From the IMG/VR virus record IMGVR_UViG_3300032303_001959, positions 1-64,000 of that record: 64,000 nucleotides of DNA; one strand, written 5' to 3'. The notes under the pieces were generated by a model that was not told the origin of the DNA, ran no database searches, and saw only the letters and a list, made by a program, of their open reading frames with translations. The translations under genes were made by a program, and so were the position numbers. This document shows, one piece after another, positions 8,920 through 50,331 of this stretch; positions within the stretch are counted from its first letter, which is position 1, and every line of letters begins with the position of its first letter. This stretch comes from a virus. Its lineage: Duplodnaviria; Caudoviricetes.

Positions 8920-9342
8920 TTACAGCCCCATCCTGGCTAGCCGATCAAAGAAAGACGCCGGGTAGATCGACATACGATCGAAATGTTTATGTCTGGAAAA
9001 ACCTACATGTGTGGGCCGTCCGAGGTTTTCAAATACCGGTTTAATCATGCGACCCAAACCCCCATGCAAAAGACTGACCGTCCAGTCTACCCAGAGAAGC
9101 TTGCCGTCGGCCTTATGAGCCCAGCGATCGCGAGCCTGCTCAGGATCATCAACTCTGCGAAACAAAGTAACCCCTTGCACCGCCTTGTATTTGTTTACAT
9201 CCCGATCAAGAACAATGGCCATATTCTGCATATGCCACTGAACAGACTTTTCGGGCTCCTGGCAGTGAGGAAGCATGACTTTCACGAAATCGATGGTTTC
9301 CTGTATAAAGGGAGGATTGGCCGGGGTCATGTGTATTGTCAC
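8920..9342 (-). CDS. Small conserved virion-module protein (possibly GNAT-like)
   Basis: 140 aa directly upstream of the ejection genes, where podoviruses often carry a GNAT-like gene; weak motif support. Confidence 0.35.
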   Translation of the reverse strand: MTIHMTPANPPFIQETIDFVKVMLPHCQEPEKSVQWHMQNMAIVLDRDVNKYKAVQGVTLFRRVDDPEQARDRWAHKADGKLLWVDWTVSLLHGGLGRMIKPVFENLGRPTHVGFSRHKHFDRMSIYPASFFDRLARMGL

Positions 9343-30588: not shown

Positions 30589-30622
30589 GTGAACGACTAT
30601 TCTGTCTACTGTCAGTTAAAAG

Positions 30623-44672: not shown

Positions 44673-44906
44673 ATGCCACTAGGTAAAAGAGATTACGCCA
44701 AGGAATACCGGGAGTATCACGGTAAGCCTGATCAAATTAAACGTCGTGCTGGTCGTAACGCTGCTCGTCGAACGATGACTAAACGTCGTGGGCTGGCTGC
44801 TATGCGTGGAAAAGACGTCAATCACAAGGACGGCAACACCATGAATAATGCAGCGTCGAACCTGAATCTTGAGTCAAAGAGCGTGAATCGCGGACGAAAG
44901 TATTGA
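44673..44906 (+). CDS. Small HNH-type protein
   Basis: RDYAKEY...GKDVNHKDGNTMNN..SNL...S..NR. Confidence 0.7.
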   Translation: MPLGKRDYAKEYREYHGKPDQIKRRAGRNAARRTMTKRRGLAAMRGKDVNHKDGNTMNNAASNLNLESKSVNRGRKY

Positions 44907-44930
44907 CTAATTCAAGACAGTATTTAATAT
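44903..44930 (+). promoter_or_regulatory. Sigma70-type promoter TTGACT-16-TAATAT overlapping the 22-bp palindrome
   Basis: Same layout (TTGACT-N7-GACAGTA-N2-[-10]) at 47821, 49824 and, on the minus strand, 30626. Confidence 0.7.
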
Positions 44931-44938
44931 AGGAAGTT

Positions 44939-45262
44939 ATGGCATACGAACCCTCCAGCAGCGACAACGAGAATTATTCTTTACGGAAAATCAATCAGCT
45001 AGCCTCGGATTCTGAAAAGGATTCGAGTCTTTCCCTGGGGCAGTTTGGAGCCGTTTACAAGACTGCTGCCGGCGCTCTTACGGGCGGGCCTTGGGGCGCT
45101 ATTCAGGCGACGGCCACGGCGGTCGTTAACGTAACATCGGGCAACTGGACTGATAGTGATGCAACGACGGCCGTTGATATTGCAGCGGGAGCAACCATTT
45201 TTGGTTCTTTCTCCGCAATCACGCTCACCAGCGGAAAAATTATTGCTTACAAAAGCGCTTAA
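44939..45262 (+). CDS. Putative capsid head-spike base protein (small beta-sandwich)
   Basis: GAIQ...IAAGATIFGSFSAITLTSGKIIAY; lies directly before a LGLGL-start fibre gene. Confidence 0.5.
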   Translation: MAYEPSSSDNENYSLRKINQLASDSEKDSSLSLGQFGAVYKTAAGALTGGPWGAIQATATAVVNVTSGNWTDSDATTAVDIAAGATIFGSFSAITLTSGKIIAYKSA

Positions 45263-45268
45263 ACGGCC

Positions 45269-47254
45269 ATGCCGAAACTCGGCTTAGGCTTATTGTTATC
45301 GCGTTCTAGGGGTGCTAGTAGCGCAGTCAATTCTTCAAATGTAATAAATTTTACTTTGTCGAATTATACTCCTTCTTCGCCAAACTTCTCTTTTAATTCT
45401 ATACCCAATTATACTAATTATGTAGACCCTAATATTGCATATTCTCTGCCTTTATCTTCCCCAGTTGTAGGAAAATTAAATGTTTCTTATGTGTCCTTGG
45501 TTTCTCGGGTTTTTATAACAAAAGTTACATCTAGGGATTTTTGGTATCTGAACGACTACGGAGGCTATTCATATACTAGTTATTACTTTATTTTGAATAA
45601 TAACGGGTCTACATTTACAAAAGATTTCTATAGGCGTGAGCTTGCTGGTACAGATTATAAAGGAAATGAGTATTATGATTTTTTTTATGAGACAACTTGG
45701 ACATTAAGCTGGAACGGAACCGCTTGGCAGTTATTTGGAAAAGCAAATGTTGGTAGCACAGCAGGTGTTTTAAAAACTTATGTTGGGGGGTCTGCGTCTG
45801 CTCTGCCTTCCCCACCTGTATGGGGAAATGATTTAGATTTAGATTATTATATTAATTACACTAATTCGCTGAGCGACAGCAATATGAACGGAGCTTCTAA
45901 TCAACTTTATTTTGCAACGCAGTCTTCTAATAATGTTTATAAAGCAAAAACTATTACTTCAACACTTACGCAAACAGGAAAATTAGGATTAATTTTTAAT
46001 TTCTTATTACCTTCAGTTTACACTACTGGTTCGCCTTCTGTTTCTTCATCCTTTAGTAACTCTTATACAAGTTTATTTAGTCCCCTATTTAATTTTTTAT
46101 CAGCCCAGATTAATGCTTTTACTTCACCTATATCTTCAGATATTTATTTACCGAAAGATGCTGTTTCGTCCACTTCAATATCTTTAACTACTAATGGAGA
46201 TTTAACTGATTTAACTAGCCAAGCTTTATCCTCTTTAAGTCAAACAAGCACTACTCTTACTAATAGTAATTTTTCAGCAGTAACATATTCTATATCCGCT
46301 GATCTAACTGAAAACACTACTTCTTCTAATCGAGCCATATCGATTAGTGGCACAAAAACATACGATAATACATCATTTACTGCGGCCTCCAATGCCTACC
46401 AGATAGGCACTACAGCCCCAAGCCCGAGTATTTCAATATCTTCAAATAATACAACTCCAAGGAACTTTTATCTTACCCATATAGGAAGCGGGTTTAGTAC
46501 TAGAACTCTAGGTGAAAATGAAGGGATAGCTTTTTGGGATTCTACACGAAAGTTGTGGGCAATACCAAAAATGGGGCAATATATTAGATATTATGGTGGA
46601 AAATACGAATTTATTAACATAAATGGGACAACTATAGAGACCTCTGCTGGGTCTAATCCTTGGCTTGCTAATACAGATGCTTGTTCACCAACAGTAATGC
46701 CTTGGAATGCTAGGTGGCAACAAAACATAGATGTATCTAAACATTATTTTGATAGTATGCAAAAGCCGACAACTCTTAATATTGACACAACATTTAAGTT
46801 TCCTTTAAGTGGTGTTAATATATCTTCATTTAAAATCAAATCTTCTCAAAGAAATATTGGTGGGTATCTTATTGATAATTTTAAACTTGGTCAGTATAGA
46901 AAATTGGCATTTATGGGTATAAATGCAAAAGCCCCGCAATCAGGTTATCCCGATAGTGGGGTTCGTATGTACTACAGCTATGCAGAAAATAAATGGTTTT
47001 TAGTTATATATGAATCTGTTTCATATAAAGGCAATTCTTCTGGAAACGCTTACACATATTCAGCACCTTATTCAACTTCGTTTCCAATTACATTTACCTA
47101 TGTGTCGAGAGCTAATACTTCTTCATCCACAATTGCAACAACTTTACAAGTTTCAAAGGATACTACAACAGCTTTTGATGATGTTTATACTCTTGCCGAC
47201 GCAACTTACCCCATCACAATTCCAGTAGATACAGCTTTTTCATCTATTTGGTAA
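45269..47254 (+). CDS. Ser/Thr/Tyr-rich putative head fibre/adhesin 1
   Basis: 661 aa, visibly AT-rich DNA, starts MPKLGLGLLL. Confidence 0.55.
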   Translation: MPKLGLGLLLSRSRGASSAVNSSNVINFTLSNYTPSSPNFSFNSIPNYTNYVDPNIAYSLPLSSPVVGKLNVSYVSLVSRVFITKVTSRDFWYLNDYGGYSYTSYYFILNNNGSTFTKDFYRRELAGTDYKGNEYYDFFYETTWTLSWNGTAWQLFGKANVGSTAGVLKTYVGGSASALPSPPVWGNDLDLDYYINYTNSLSDSNMNGASNQLYFATQSSNNVYKAKTITSTLTQTGKLGLIFNFLLPSVYTTGSPSVSSSFSNSYTSLFSPLFNFLSAQINAFTSPISSDIYLPKDAVSSTSISLTTNGDLTDLTSQALSSLSQTSTTLTNSNFSAVTYSISADLTENTTSSNRAISISGTKTYDNTSFTAASNAYQIGTTAPSPSISISSNNTTPRNFYLTHIGSGFSTRTLGENEGIAFWDSTRKLWAIPKMGQYIRYYGGKYEFININGTTIETSAGSNPWLANTDACSPTVMPWNARWQQNIDVSKHYFDSMQKPTTLNIDTTFKFPLSGVNISSFKIKSSQRNIGGYLIDNFKLGQYRKLAFMGINAKAPQSGYPDSGVRMYYSYAENKWFLVIYESVSYKGNSSGNAYTYSAPYSTSFPITFTYVSRANTSSSTIATTLQVSKDTTTAFDDVYTLADATYPITIPVDTAFSSIW

Positions 47255-47275
47255 ACAATAAAAAGGAAATAAAAT

Positions 47276-47818
47276 ATGATATTTTTTAAATACGATCAAA
47301 CTAAAAGTATACTAGCTTTCTTAGGAAGAAGTGGTTCCTCATCTTTTACTAAAGCTTTTATTGGAGAAGAAGCTTTTAATAATTTTACTCCATCAGAAGG
47401 AAAAGCGACTCCTCATATTCTCAATAAAGTTTGTTATAAGTACCAGCTTTTAGAAAACCTATACCCGGATTACACAATCTATGCAGTAATAAGGCATCCA
47501 TTTGAAAGATTTCAAAGTGCTATGAACCACAAGAAGAAGTCTTTTGAGTATTTCTTAGAAAATCCTTTCGATGTGCATACTAAAAACGCATACGAACTAA
47601 TCAAAGGATTAAATGTAGTGGCTTACAGATTTGAAGACGGGGGAGTTAATAATTGTGCAAAGGCTATGGGTCTGGACAACTTTGAAAAGATTAACTCGAC
47701 CGACCATGTAATTACTTTAACAGACGAGCAAAAAGCTATTCTTTCTGAGAAATATGCAAAAGATATAGAGCTTTGGAACAGCATTGATGAGAATGGAAAA
47801 GCTATATTTGTAGAGTAG
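47276..47818 (+). CDS. Sulfotransferase-family-like protein, copy 1
   Basis: GRSGSSS (5'-PSB-like) and IRHPFERFQSA (3'-PB-like) motifs. Confidence 0.65.
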   Translation: MIFFKYDQTKSILAFLGRSGSSSFTKAFIGEEAFNNFTPSEGKATPHILNKVCYKYQLLENLYPDYTIYAVIRHPFERFQSAMNHKKKSFEYFLENPFDVHTKNAYELIKGLNVVAYRFEDGGVNNCAKAMGLDNFEKINSTDHVITLTDEQKAILSEKYAKDIELWNSIDENGKAIFVE

Positions 47819-47858
47819 TATTGACTGTAAAAAGACAGTACATAACCTAGAACAACCA

Positions 47859-47891
47859 TGGAATACGAACCCTCAAGTAAAAAAGCTTAAG
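47859..47891 (+). pseudogene. Collapsed remnant (MEYEPSSKKA*) of the 44939-45262 gene
   Basis: atggaatacgaaccctcaagt...gcttaa versus atggcatacgaaccctccagc...gcttaa, at the equivalent cassette position. Confidence 0.7.
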
Positions 47892-47896
47892 TTGTT

Positions 47897-49276
47897 ATGC
47901 CAAAACTCGGCTTAGGCTTAATACTGGCAAATGCTAAATCAAATGCTATTCGCCTAAATACTCCTCTTCGTGTCGCTATTACGGGGATTGGTAATTTTAT
48001 ATACAATGGGTATGATGGGTATGATCGATTCAGCAGTAGATATGCGTCCTTGCCATATTCATTTTATTGGGATTCTACGTTTACCACAAGTGAATCATAT
48101 TACTATTCAAGTTCATCATATACAGAGGGTCCTGATATGAGAACAAAGAGTGATATAATTGGAACAGTATGGAATGGAAAAACTGTTACCGTTGCGGGAG
48201 CAGTAACTCAAATAACAATATCCTATTCCCCACAAACATTTACATATTCAAGATCAGTTCCTACGGTTGCTTTTACACCCAGCGTGACAAGTTTTCAATC
48301 GCTTATGAGAACTTATTACTTGCAGTTTGACAAATCTAATGCGGGTTCATATAGCGCTACAATCCTTGGAGATGAATACCCGGATTATAGTTGGTCGACT
48401 ACCGCAATACCAATCACAATAACAAAGAAAGATGTAACCCTTACCCTTTCAGCTGGAACCAGCACATACGGGCAAACGCCAGTAATAGCCACAATTACGG
48501 GTCTTGTTTCTGGGGACTCAATTAATACTTCATTTTCTGGTTTGGTTACGCAGTCTCTACCTACTTCTACTTCTAATGCGGGCACATACTCAATTACATT
48601 TAACCCGTCGTATACGAGCGCAAATTATAATATAACAAATTCTCCGGCTTCTGTTACTTGGACAATCAATAAAGCCAATCAAACTATTAGTTTTAGCCCA
48701 AGTACTTCTGTATACACGGGCTCTTCTCAGACTTTAACTGCTTCTTCGTCGTCTGGATTGCCAGTATCTTTTAGTATTATTAGTGGTCCTGGTTCATTAA
48801 GTGGAGCTGTTCTTTCATATACAGGGACTGGAACTGTTGTAGTAAGAGCAAGTCAGTCGGGGAATACTAATTACAATGCGGCTTCTAGTGTGGATAGCTC
48901 CATAACGGTTACAACTCCCGCCCCCGATATATCCTCTTCCGTCTCCTCCCTTCATTTAGTTTTTTACAATGGATATGGAACAGGCACTGGGGGATGGGGG
49001 TTGGATGATAATAATAATGTTGTACTCAACAACCCACCTCTTTTTACCAGAATTTATTCCGACCCCTTTGGTTTCGGGAATACATTGGCATTTTCGTTCA
49101 ATAATTGGTGGTTCTTACAGTGGGCGGGAGATCGTTGGGCGCTTGGAGTTGATTGGGGAAAAGGACCTGGAGTTTGGCTGAATTCCCTTCCATGTAGCAT
49201 TTCCTACATACCTGCAAATCAATCACAATGGGAAACATATGGTAACACAGGTGCCGTTATCAGGGTTGTGCCATAA
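47897..49276 (+). CDS. Putative head fibre/adhesin 2 with MBG-like and Ig-like domains
   Basis: Starts MPKLGLGLIL; contains TYGQTP...GLVSGD...AGTYSI...NYNIT and KANQTISF...ASSSSGLPVSF...RASQSGNTNYNAA. Confidence 0.65.
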   Translation: MPKLGLGLILANAKSNAIRLNTPLRVAITGIGNFIYNGYDGYDRFSSRYASLPYSFYWDSTFTTSESYYYSSSSYTEGPDMRTKSDIIGTVWNGKTVTVAGAVTQITISYSPQTFTYSRSVPTVAFTPSVTSFQSLMRTYYLQFDKSNAGSYSATILGDEYPDYSWSTTAIPITITKKDVTLTLSAGTSTYGQTPVIATITGLVSGDSINTSFSGLVTQSLPTSTSNAGTYSITFNPSYTSANYNITNSPASVTWTINKANQTISFSPSTSVYTGSSQTLTASSSSGLPVSFSIISGPGSLSGAVLSYTGTGTVVVRASQSGNTNYNAASSVDSSITVTTPAPDISSSVSSLHLVFYNGYGTGTGGWGLDDNNNVVLNNPPLFTRIYSDPFGFGNTLAFSFNNWWFLQWAGDRWALGVDWGKGPGVWLNSLPCSISYIPANQSQWETYGNTGAVIRVVP

Positions 49277-49281
49277 ATTAT

Positions 49282-49821
49282 ATGTTCATTATAAGCGATA
49301 ATTATAAATGTGCGGTTGCCTTTTTTGGAAGAAGCGGTTCATCTTCTTTTGCAAAAGCATTTTTGCCAAAGGAAGTGGCTGAATCTTTTGCGCCAAAAAG
49401 CGGGGTTCCGTCTATTCACTCACTTTGTAAGTTATGTATGCCTCAATATCTTGCAGAATTATATCCAGATTATACAAAATATGCCGTCATAAGACACCCA
49501 TACGAAAGATGGCAGAGCGCCATAAACCATACCGAAAAGACATTTGAAGAGCTTATGGATCGCCGCGCGTGGGACGTTCATATCAAAAGTTGCACAGATA
49601 CAATCAAAGGAATAGAGCTTAAAGCCTATCGATTTGAAGATGGTGGGGTGGAGAATTGTGCCAAAGACATTGGCATACCAGATTTTGAAAAAACAAACTC
49701 AACTGATCACATCATTACTTTGACGGATGAACAAAAAACTATTTTAGATGAAAAGTATGCAAAGGATATTGAGTTGTGGGGTGGCATCAACGAAAACGGA
49801 AAGATTATAGCTTTGGAGTAG
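49282..49821 (+). CDS. Sulfotransferase-family-like protein, copy 2
   Basis: Paralogue of 47276-47818, sharing GRSGSSSF, YPDYT.YAVIRHP.ER.QSA, AYRFEDGGV.NCAK, TLTDEQK, KYAKDIELW. Confidence 0.7.
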   Translation: MFIISDNYKCAVAFFGRSGSSSFAKAFLPKEVAESFAPKSGVPSIHSLCKLCMPQYLAELYPDYTKYAVIRHPYERWQSAINHTEKTFEELMDRRAWDVHIKSCTDTIKGIELKAYRFEDGGVENCAKDIGIPDFEKTNSTDHIITLTDEQKTILDEKYAKDIELWGGINENGKIIALE

Positions 49822-49857
49822 TATTGACTGTTAAGAGACAGTAAGTAGCATCGATTT

Positions 49858-50331
49858 ATGGCTAAAAATAAAATCCCAGGACTGCTGATTGAAGGGCTCG
49901 GAATGGCTAAGGCAGAGCCCACGCATGACGAATCAACGGAAGGGCCGGATATTATGGAGGCTTTCGCATCCTCCCCCGTTCCCGGTGAGTTCTTCTCTAC
50001 CCTCTTGCACTCAGCCACTATCGCTCATCAGATTCATTTTAAGACCCGTTCTTTTGCCATCCATAAAGCCCTGGGCAAGTTCTACGAAGAGGTTGTAGAG
50101 CTGACCGACGCTTTGGTTGAGTCCTGGCAAGGCAAGTATGGGTTGGTTCAGAACTTCCCCTTCAAATATGACCTGGAGACCGAAGATCCTGAGGCATTTT
50201 TGGCTGACCTTGATTACTACGTTGAAACACACCGCGAGCAAGTTTCAGACGACTCTGAGATCCAAAACGATATTGATACGATCCAGACCCTGATCAACTC
50301 CACCACCTACAAGATCCGCTTCCTTAAATAA
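49858..50331 (+). CDS. Ferritin-like four-helix protein (DUF5856-like)
   Basis: HQIHFKTRSFAIHKALGKFYE...D.LVESWQGKYG...IQNDID.I. Confidence 0.7.
   Translation: MAKNKIPGLLIEGLGMAKAEPTHDESTEGPDIMEAFASSPVPGEFFSTLLHSATIAHQIHFKTRSFAIHKALGKFYEEVVELTDALVESWQGKYGLVQNFPFKYDLETEDPEAFLADLDYYVETHREQVSDDSEIQNDIDTIQTLINSTTYKIRFLK

Follow-up and report, generated by a model that had tools for sequence, protein, structure and literature searches.

A tandem two-fibre locus of an environmental tailed phage as a candidate head-spike system with fibre-linked sulfotransferase-fold proteins

In the genome of an environmental tailed phage of about 73 kb, one small gene and two fibre genes that begin alike are encoded together with two sulfotransferase-like genes. 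What do these genes build, and on what would the two sulfotransferase-like (ST) proteins act? The question was examined in the window, i.e. bases 1-64000 of the 72,844-bp metagenome-assembled IMG/VR viral genome IMGVR_UViG_3300032303_001959 (Caudoviricetes), which carries direct terminal repeats. The reading that we favour, with a probability of roughly 0.55 for the whole of it, is that the locus encodes a capsid-vertex spike of the type described for the Rhodobacter gene transfer agent (RcGTA), in which one base would carry either of two exchangeable fibres, each accompanied by an ST that would sulfate it.

The locus is organized in two tandem units (Table 1), for which the coordinates and gene content given in a preliminary description of this DNA, made from the sequence alone, all hold. 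The first unit comprises the base gene, fibre 1 and ST1; in the second one, a remnant of the base gene precedes fibre 2 and ST2. The base gene is separated from fibre 1 by 6 nucleotides (nt), the same gap is found between the remnant and fibre 2, and the gene order is conserved in relatives. As had been noticed, the fibres share a common start, limited to the first 22 residues or so and visible as the direct repeat D3, and then diverge. The higher AT content reported for the locus was also found, since the GC content is 0.33-0.41 for fibres and STs, vs 0.52 for the base gene and 0.48 for the whole window.

In close relatives, whose base proteins are 86-91% identical to that of the window, the locus reads promoter, base, a single fibre, promoter and DUF5856 gene. 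All their fibres start with MPKLG(L/V)GL, have lengths of 117-442 residues and possess essentially unrelated bodies. The flanks of the locus are 82-89% identical in nt sequence to those of the relatives up to position 45297 and again from 49819, and the blastn matches to the relatives L015, L016, L018 and L020 stop at 45292-45314. Since homology ends right behind the anchor codons and is found again from 49819, the variable slot was placed at 45298-49818. Thus, the boundaries are conserved while the fibres are swapped, as the preliminary description had proposed: relatives keep the base, the anchor and the flanks, and their fibres are unrelated. The variation in fibre number that it also expected was not seen among the relatives, in which only the identity of the fibre varies.

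Because the record is metagenome-assembled and repeats at the unit boundaries could mislead an assembler, the tandem might be thought to be a chimera of two strain variants joined through their promoter and anchor repeats. However, unit 2 holds a decayed base remnant and not a full allele. Furthermore, two independent assemblies from JGI and ENA samples (contigs L128 and L129), representing a sister strain 93% identical in nt sequence to the window strain, share the junction between ST1, promoter, remnant and fibre 2, with a different and longer remnant. The chimera was rejected on these grounds and is regarded as extremely improbable.

As previously described, the remnant of the window strain corresponds to the base gene in its first and last codons, through the direct repeats D6 and D3, and it retains the base start and stop together with the 6-nt spacing to fibre 2. 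The remnant of the sister genome is an in-frame 20-residue version, MAYEPSSSDSGGKVIAYKNA followed by a stop codon, in which the base C-terminus is still visible, so that this lineage must once have had a second full base gene, since decayed by in-frame deletions. The promoter-base-anchor scaffold was thus duplicated before the in-frame decay of the second base copy. The kept start, stop and gap would be compatible with translational coupling.

Table 1. Features of the two-fibre locus (positions in the window)
Feature	Protein	Position	Strand	Description
Promoter/operator copy 1		44901..44930	+	Exact motif; repeat family D1; -35 TTGACT, 16-nt spacer, -10 TAATAT
Spike base gene (putative)	P0001, 107 aa	44939-45262	+	Base-family member; predicted N-terminal helix and small beta jelly roll
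Fibre 1	P0002, 661 aa	45269-47254	+	MPKLGLGLLL anchor; orphan Ser/Thr/Tyr/Asn-rich body; ends ...FSSIW
Fibre 1 anchor-coding segment		45269..45298	+	M-P-K-L-G-L-G-L-L-L; repeat D3; homology to relatives ends here
ST1	P0003, 180 aa	47276-47818	+	Minimal sulfotransferase-fold protein (predicted structure, motifs)
Promoter/operator copy 2		47819..47848	+	Exact motif; repeat D1
Base remnant		47858-47890	+	MEYEPSSKKA and stop (10 codons); repeats D6 and D3; in frame
Fibre 2	P0004, 459 aa	47897-49276	+	MPKLGLGLIL anchor; central MBG/Ig-like region (lead only); C-terminal distal domain of ~125 aa
ST2	P0005, 179 aa	49282-49821	+	Second minimal sulfotransferase-fold protein; 58% identical to ST1
Promoter/operator copy 3		49822..49851	+	Exact motif; promoter of the DUF5856 gene (49858-50331); right edge of the variable slot

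The anchor was found to be enriched in genes placed behind a base gene. The motif LG[LV][GSTN][LIT] occurs within the first 12 residues in 24 of 58 distinct genes located downstream of base homologues, vs none of the 619 other open reading frames (ORFs) of the same loci. The genes downstream of other base clades have N-terminal types of their own, and the fibres downstream of base homologues range from 107 to 1931 residues in length. None of 80 other base loci includes two anchored fibres. The anchor was also considered as a signal peptide, a possibility rejected on account of the shortness of the hydrophobic stretch and of the D or N that relatives carry within it.

In RcGTA, the jelly-roll protein Rcc01079 forms pentamers on the capsid pentons, each of which holds one Rcc01080 chain via residues 2-10, IALGLGLGL (the star peptide), and the head fibres bind the capsule (Bardy 2020, PMC7296036; PDB 6TB9). 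The preliminary description was correct on these facts. The AlphaFold2 model of the window base protein (predicted local distance difference test score, pLDDT, 81) combines a beta jelly roll with a helix at the N-terminus. When this model was submitted to an unbiased VIA structure search over 48,161 chains, the first rank was occupied by 6tb9_E3, a chain of 84 residues in the RcGTA capsid (Z 6.1 over 78 aligned residues, root-mean-square deviation 4.5 Å). We take this chain to be the RcGTA base, because its length fits neither the capsid protein nor the 9-residue fibre peptide. The second rank was a small protein chain from the capsid of phage Carin1 (8CJZ), on which no paper was found in a literature search, and the capsid-vertex turret proteins of HFTV1 and STIV were also listed. 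The VIA rank would agree with the proposed likeness of the base to Rcc01079; Foldseek returned nothing significant for the model in the PDB. The predicted fold is consistent with a link to RcGTA and not decisive. The RcGTA reading draws its weight from fold, gene order and anchor peptide occurring together, and we consider this head-spike reading as supported, if unproven.

The base family comprises at least 100 protein clusters, all of them unannotated, and relatives are encoded at no fewer than 258 IMG/VR loci. In the cultured Prochlorococcus siphovirus P-HS2, a 79-residue homologue (L122:5986-6225, corresponding to MT490303.1 27580-27819; phrog_34166, of unknown function) is encoded shortly after the major head protein, with the genes for the head-tail adaptor and for head closure on either side of it; this position fits a head-associated virion protein. 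The cyanosiphoviruses MED4-184 and MED4-117 also encode a 79-residue member at the adaptor/head-closure position. The three phages offer culturable systems in which a base-family protein could be located in the virion. No match was obtained when the base and both fibres were compared by tblastn with 50,697 cultured phage records, and a second base-family member likewise gave none. Nothing relevant came out of the PDB sequences for the base, for either fibre or for two profiles of the base family, the BLIP-II and 'Bagel' matches being repeat artefacts. A search of genome contigs for the base recovered eight loci from metagenome-assembled or other genomes, none from Rhodobacter, and provided no bridge to rcc01079.

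In the mechanism that we propose, the 107-residue protein would form a pentameric socket on the capsid pentons, and a single fibre chain would plug into it via its first ten residues or so (L4, L6, L8, L10 and P2), as Rcc01080 does in Rcc01079. Since the second base copy has decayed, one base would serve two fibres. One base pentamer would accept either fibre via the shared plug, and the virions would therefore probably be mosaic, with both fibres displayed.

The AlphaFold2 model of ST1, built on a 50-sequence alignment, reached a pLDDT of 91.7 and a predicted template modelling score of 0.88. In the VIA search, ranks 1 to 18 were all sulfotransferases (Z 7.8-5.1, about 135-162 of the 180 residues), nucleotide kinases appearing only below Z 5; the best match was heparan sulfate 2-O-sulfotransferase, with Z 7.8 over 149 residues. 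The sulfotransferase fold attributed to the two partners is thus upheld for the modelled protein. With Foldseek against the PDB, the top match was again a sulfotransferase (3rnl), and nothing was significant. The sequence holds the motifs GRSGSSS (residues 17-23), RHPFERFQS (73-81) and DVH (99-101). In the 50 aligned sequences, R73, P75, R78 and S81 never vary, and conservation reaches at least 90% for R18, S21 and H101. By pattern, and not by residue-level superposition, these residues match a 5'-phosphosulfate-binding-like loop, a 3'-phosphate-binding-like RxPxxRxxS motif and a catalytic His. The family includes about 70 clusters, all 'hypothetical', and a literature search on phage, sulfotransferase and tail fibre returned incidental mentions only.

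The distribution of the ST genes indicated that they move together with fibre parts. ST1 is 91% identical to an ST of another phage lineage (L107) and ST2 88% identical to that of L110, vs 58% between ST1 and ST2; since the nearest relative of each is thus found in another phage, duplication in place was ruled out, and the two are not local paralogues as the preliminary description had it. In L107, a base homologue (54%) is followed by a homologue of fibre 1 (48%, starting MKLGLSLSLG) and then by the ST. In L104, a fibre-1 homologue (36%) with a different N-terminus precedes an ST (67%). In L110 (34% GC), the order is a BppL_N-like tail protein, a 137-residue ORF that is 70% identical to the C-terminal domain of fibre 2 (residues 331-458), and the ST, while in L111 and L113 (about 30% GC) small distal-domain proteins are followed by an ST. 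Residues 174-341 of fibre 2 are 49% identical to an 810-residue protein of L104. The distal domain and the ST belong to one block of nt identity (77.5% to L107; 84.6% to L110, window 48929-49779). More distant ST relatives (about 26% identity) lie directly 3' of fibre or receptor-binding genes with fn3, Mtd_N, F5/8 type C or Laminin_G_3 domains. ST1 and ST2 were therefore acquired separately from more AT-rich phages, each with the distal part of its fibre. This suggests that phages swap ready-made modules made of a fibre and a modifying enzyme. The statement that each fibre travels with a dedicated ST is therefore valid for the present fibre types, given the linkage in L107 and L110, and does not extend to a general property of the spike, since an ST was found at 0 of the 80 other base loci.

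A few features of the fibres and of their neighbours may be described here. Fibre 1 gave no lead in Pfam, PHROG or Atlas. The MBG/Ig-like domains reported in fibre 2 can be kept as a lead, since the Atlas feature scores for MBG_2/Big_2 clusters were 0.84-0.87, below the reliability line of 0.9; no Pfam match for such domains was obtained, even at an E value of 5. All members of the fibre-1 family (P0002, P0185-P0191 and L104:5946-7979) end with ...IPVD(T/S)(A/S)FSSIW despite overall identities of 36-68%, and the ST gene begins about 22-25 nt after this end; the ST could use this conserved C-terminus as a tail for recognition or docking. In addition, the short head fibres of relatives and the small ST-adjacent proteins of AT-rich phages have a common linker, ..P(R)xG..AP.GI.VA.T.., before the distal domain and an end of the ..GW....ITITAA type (L028, L111:2154-2768, L113:1607-2056, L110:5582-5995 and window 48890-49276). 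This suggests a common class of distal domains of about 100 residues that would be used with different anchors.

Three of the loci with distant ST relatives (L124:1038-1622, L125:3961-4545 and L127:3586-4167) encode a 193-194-residue protein, 64-80% identical between loci, that overlaps or follows the ST and gives a weak WelO5 match (2OG-Fe(II) halogenase/oxygenase; E 4e-4, below the cut-off). Such a succession of fibre, sulfotransferase and oxygenase-like genes hints that the fibre may be modified in two steps. In L104, a different phage of 55-63 kb, a 109-residue protein ending ...VAGKAYYILEG, which recalls the base C-terminus SGKIIAY, is followed by two fibres of 810 and 677 residues whose N-termini share a motif, MAIFGRNRATLGR and MKFGFFRGRNRF (L104:2599-7979). 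This locus may represent a comparable socket-and-plug arrangement in which the plug differs. In L107, the fibre/ST region is immediately followed by the gene for a giant protein of 5448 residues with ddrB-ParB and helicase-type domains (L107:9944-12564).

With regard to the role of the STs, the fibre distal part and the 180-residue ST of the 3'-phosphoadenosine 5'-phosphosulfate (PAPS) type constitute a two-gene module, gained by horizontal transfer from more AT-rich phages. A late-type promoter would drive each ST together with its fibre, and the STs would use host PAPS, since neither PAPS genes nor an adenosine 5'-phosphosulfate kinase were found in the phage. Most likely, each ST would O-sulfate its partner fibre before assembly. 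The fibre is proposed as acceptor because both fibres contain 34% Ser/Thr/Tyr and are poor in acidic residues (Glu 0.9-1.5%), and because no GT9, GT2 or GT1 glycosyltransferase was found in the phage. We know of no phage in which virion sulfation has been shown. In its most specific form, the proposal is that STs of about 180 residues are co-transferred partners of receptor-binding distal domains that O-sulfate fibre Ser/Thr/Tyr residues directly, with no glycan intermediate, so that each virion would display two differently sulfated head fibres on one type of socket. In this complete form the proposal is tentative, and on balance we think it doubtful.

Several results weigh against the spike-and-sulfation reading. 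First, the base match at Z 6.1 and 4.5 Å ties with thiamin pyrophosphokinase and cupin jelly rolls (Z 5-6.5), and neither phmmer nor two base-family profiles retrieved the RcGTA chains or Rcc01079 from the PDB sequences, although divergence could hide such a homology. Secondly, the locus lies outside the structural block, amid replication and accessory genes. If one adds that the distal domain of fibre 2 follows a BppL_N-like tail protein in L110, the base and fibres could be taken for a tail-associated module or for an accessory module foreign to the virion, with a resemblance to RcGTA that would be convergent or coincidental. However, a small jelly-roll protein, a next-door fibre gene and an L-G-L-G-L peptide in the register of Rcc01080 coincide here, the anchor is enriched behind base genes, the P-HS2 homologue resides in a head-neck module, and the RcGTA genes are likewise encoded away from the main structural cluster. 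We therefore hold the tail or accessory assignment to be quite unlikely.

The other points that tell against the same reading concern the STs. The 80 other base loci do without an ST. With 18.5 bits, ST1 falls short of the cut-off of 22 of the Pfam family Sulfotransfer_2 (PF03567), and ST2 has no Pfam match; being below the gathering threshold, both are filed as sulfotransferase-fold proteins and not as members of PF03567, and weak Sulfotransfer_2 matches were seen in 5 of 11 ST relatives. At 180 residues, they lack most of the normal acceptor-binding region. Moreover, the best structural matches are carbohydrate and not protein sulfotransferases, yet the phage has no glycosyltransferase.

The lack of a normal acceptor-binding region in the 180-residue STs would also suit fibre-specific assembly chaperones or tip adhesins, comparable to Tfa or gp38, that kept an enzyme fold and sulfate nothing. 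Their position immediately 3' of the fibre gene and their co-transfer with the fibre C-terminal domain in at least five phage lineages reproduce the pattern of tail-fibre chaperones. On the other hand, R18, S21, R73, P75, R78, S81 and H101 are invariant or nearly so at about 25% identity, which would point to retained catalysis. The STs are better conserved than their partners (91% vs 48% in L107; 88% vs 70% in L110), whereas chaperones usually co-diverge with the tip, and no Pfam or PHROG match to Tfa families was obtained, so that only the genomic position resembles Tfa. A chaperone or adhesin role is thus rather improbable.

Alternatively, the STs could sulfate a host surface glycan serving as receptor of the partner fibre, thereby sparing progeny from binding to debris or blocking superinfection; the joint inheritance of the receptor-binding domain with an enzyme that masks the receptor would follow from this. 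This would agree with the closest folds, which are carbohydrate O-sulfotransferases (heparan sulfate 2-O- and 6-O-sulfotransferases and NDST), with the weak Sulfotransfer_2 matches, with the occurrence of more distant phage relatives in sugar-nucleotide and glycosyltransferase islands, and with the capsule binding of RcGTA head fibres (PMC7296036). In contrast, the STs appear to be co-transcribed with the fibres from the late-type promoter, no separate ST promoter having been identified; the proteins have neither membrane nor secretion signals, and it is with the fibre gene itself that the STs are linked, which holds even for large phages that look lytic. Sulfation of a host glycan is accordingly judged unlikely, and sulfation of the fibre is retained as the preferred role.

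The transcription of the locus was considered through the element that opens both units. This 22-bp pseudo-palindrome, TATTGAC-N8-GACAGTA, which resembles in sequence the binding site of a dimeric phage regulator, is present as exact copies at 44901, 47819 and 49822 on the plus strand; the sole other exact copy in the window is at 30607 on the minus strand, in the structural block just after terL. With up to two mismatches, 12 sites were counted vs 0.32 expected, and the element was therefore regarded as a genome-wide promoter/operator. Each cassette copy overlaps a sigma-70-like promoter (TTGACT, 16-nt spacer, TAnnnT). In the relatives L015 and L016, the motif precedes both the base and the DUF5856 gene. 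Because the relatives read promoter, base, fibre, promoter, DUF5856, copy 3 is the DUF5856 gene's own ancestral promoter. The preliminary description was therefore right in that identical promoter copies open the two units, while the third copy, which it had counted as closing the array, belongs to the next gene. The 12 sites, spread between window positions 9334 and 62179, follow the degenerate form TAYTGAC-N8-GNCAGTA and overlap sigma-70-like -35 boxes where genes begin, on either strand.

Concerning the genome context, a minus-strand block extends to 32.3 kb and contains terL (phrog_2, E 1.4e-12), the endolysin and several tail-fibre genes, which are the only structural and lysis genes verified in the window. 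The two-fibre locus is encoded on the plus strand, opposite to the structural genes, 3' of genes for a DUF5906-type primase/helicase, a 2OG-Fe(II) oxygenase and an HNH-like protein, and 5' of the DUF5856 gene. The promoter had been called portal-type and late: an exact copy does follow terL, which may suggest late expression, but the portal was named from its position, and the 736-residue ORF after terL showed no match to a portal family in Pfam, PHROGs or the PDB. The 'capsid' label of a 410-residue ORF likewise has no support in Pfam, PHROG or PDB. The DUF5856 gene, just downstream of ST2, belongs to phrog_858, annotated as 'starvation-inducible transcriptional regulator'; such a gene also follows the ST within 0.1-1 kb in two AT-rich phages (L111:4287-4958; L113:3648-4469) and near the ST of L107 (L107:1934-2302).

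If the favoured reading is correct, the socket-and-peptide spike would not be confined to one gene transfer agent and would be shared by many environmental phages in a large, unannotated group, as well as by cultured Prochlorococcus phages. The plug of about ten residues would be a natural recombination hotspot for capsid-displayed binding domains, useful for phage display and for the biology of host range. A compact enzyme family would ride with the distal domains of fibres, and virion sulfation could be tested with two proteins and PAPS. The layout of two fibres on one base predicts mosaic capsids and a bet-hedging of adsorption. Finally, direct sulfation of the fibres, if true, would be without precedent for a virion protein, and would be combined with a natural plug-and-play capsid display.

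How does this locus compare with known systems? A putative head-spike slot occupied by two fibres, each next to its own minimal ST, was met nowhere else in this analysis. Freeman et al. are said to have reported in 2023 the glycosylation of mycobacteriophage capsids and tails. As in phage virion glycosylation, a phage transferase adjoins here the structural gene that it presumably decorates; in contrast, the group proposed is a sulfate and not a sugar, and the window phage has no glycosyltransferase. With the Sulfotransfer_2 proteins, exemplified by heparan sulfate 2-O-sulfotransferase (PDB 3F5F), the STs share the fold, the 5'-phosphosulfate-type loop, the RxPxxRxxS motif and the His. They differ from them in length (180 vs 250-350 residues), in their Pfam score and in being cytoplasmic phage proteins encoded behind fibre genes.

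The couples gp37/gp38 of T4 and tail fibre/Tfa of lambda, P2 and Mu provide a parallel for the exchange itself, since a distal segment and the next small gene move together while the proximal anchor is conserved. However, the companion encoded in the window has a sulfotransferase fold with intact cofactor motifs, and the anchor is a putative capsid-spike plug of 10 residues and not a tail-fibre shaft.

Another close counterpart is the RcGTA head spike, reportedly described by Westbye in 2016 as made of GhsA (Rcc01079) and GhsB (Rcc01080). In both systems, a small jelly-roll base gene (predicted in the window) is directly followed by the fibre gene, the two are encoded away from the main structural cluster, and the fibre is the variable and probably glycan-binding part. 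Leu residues occupy positions 4, 6, 8 and 10 in both anchors (M-P-K-L-G-L-G-L-(L/I)-L in the window, M-IALGLGLGL in RcGTA), residue 2 being Pro in the window fibres and Ile in RcGTA, and the proteins have no detectable sequence homology. In contrast to RcGTA, the window belongs to a 73-kb phage with two alternative fibres for one base, a fibre slot that is hypervariable across relatives, and STs linked to the fibres.

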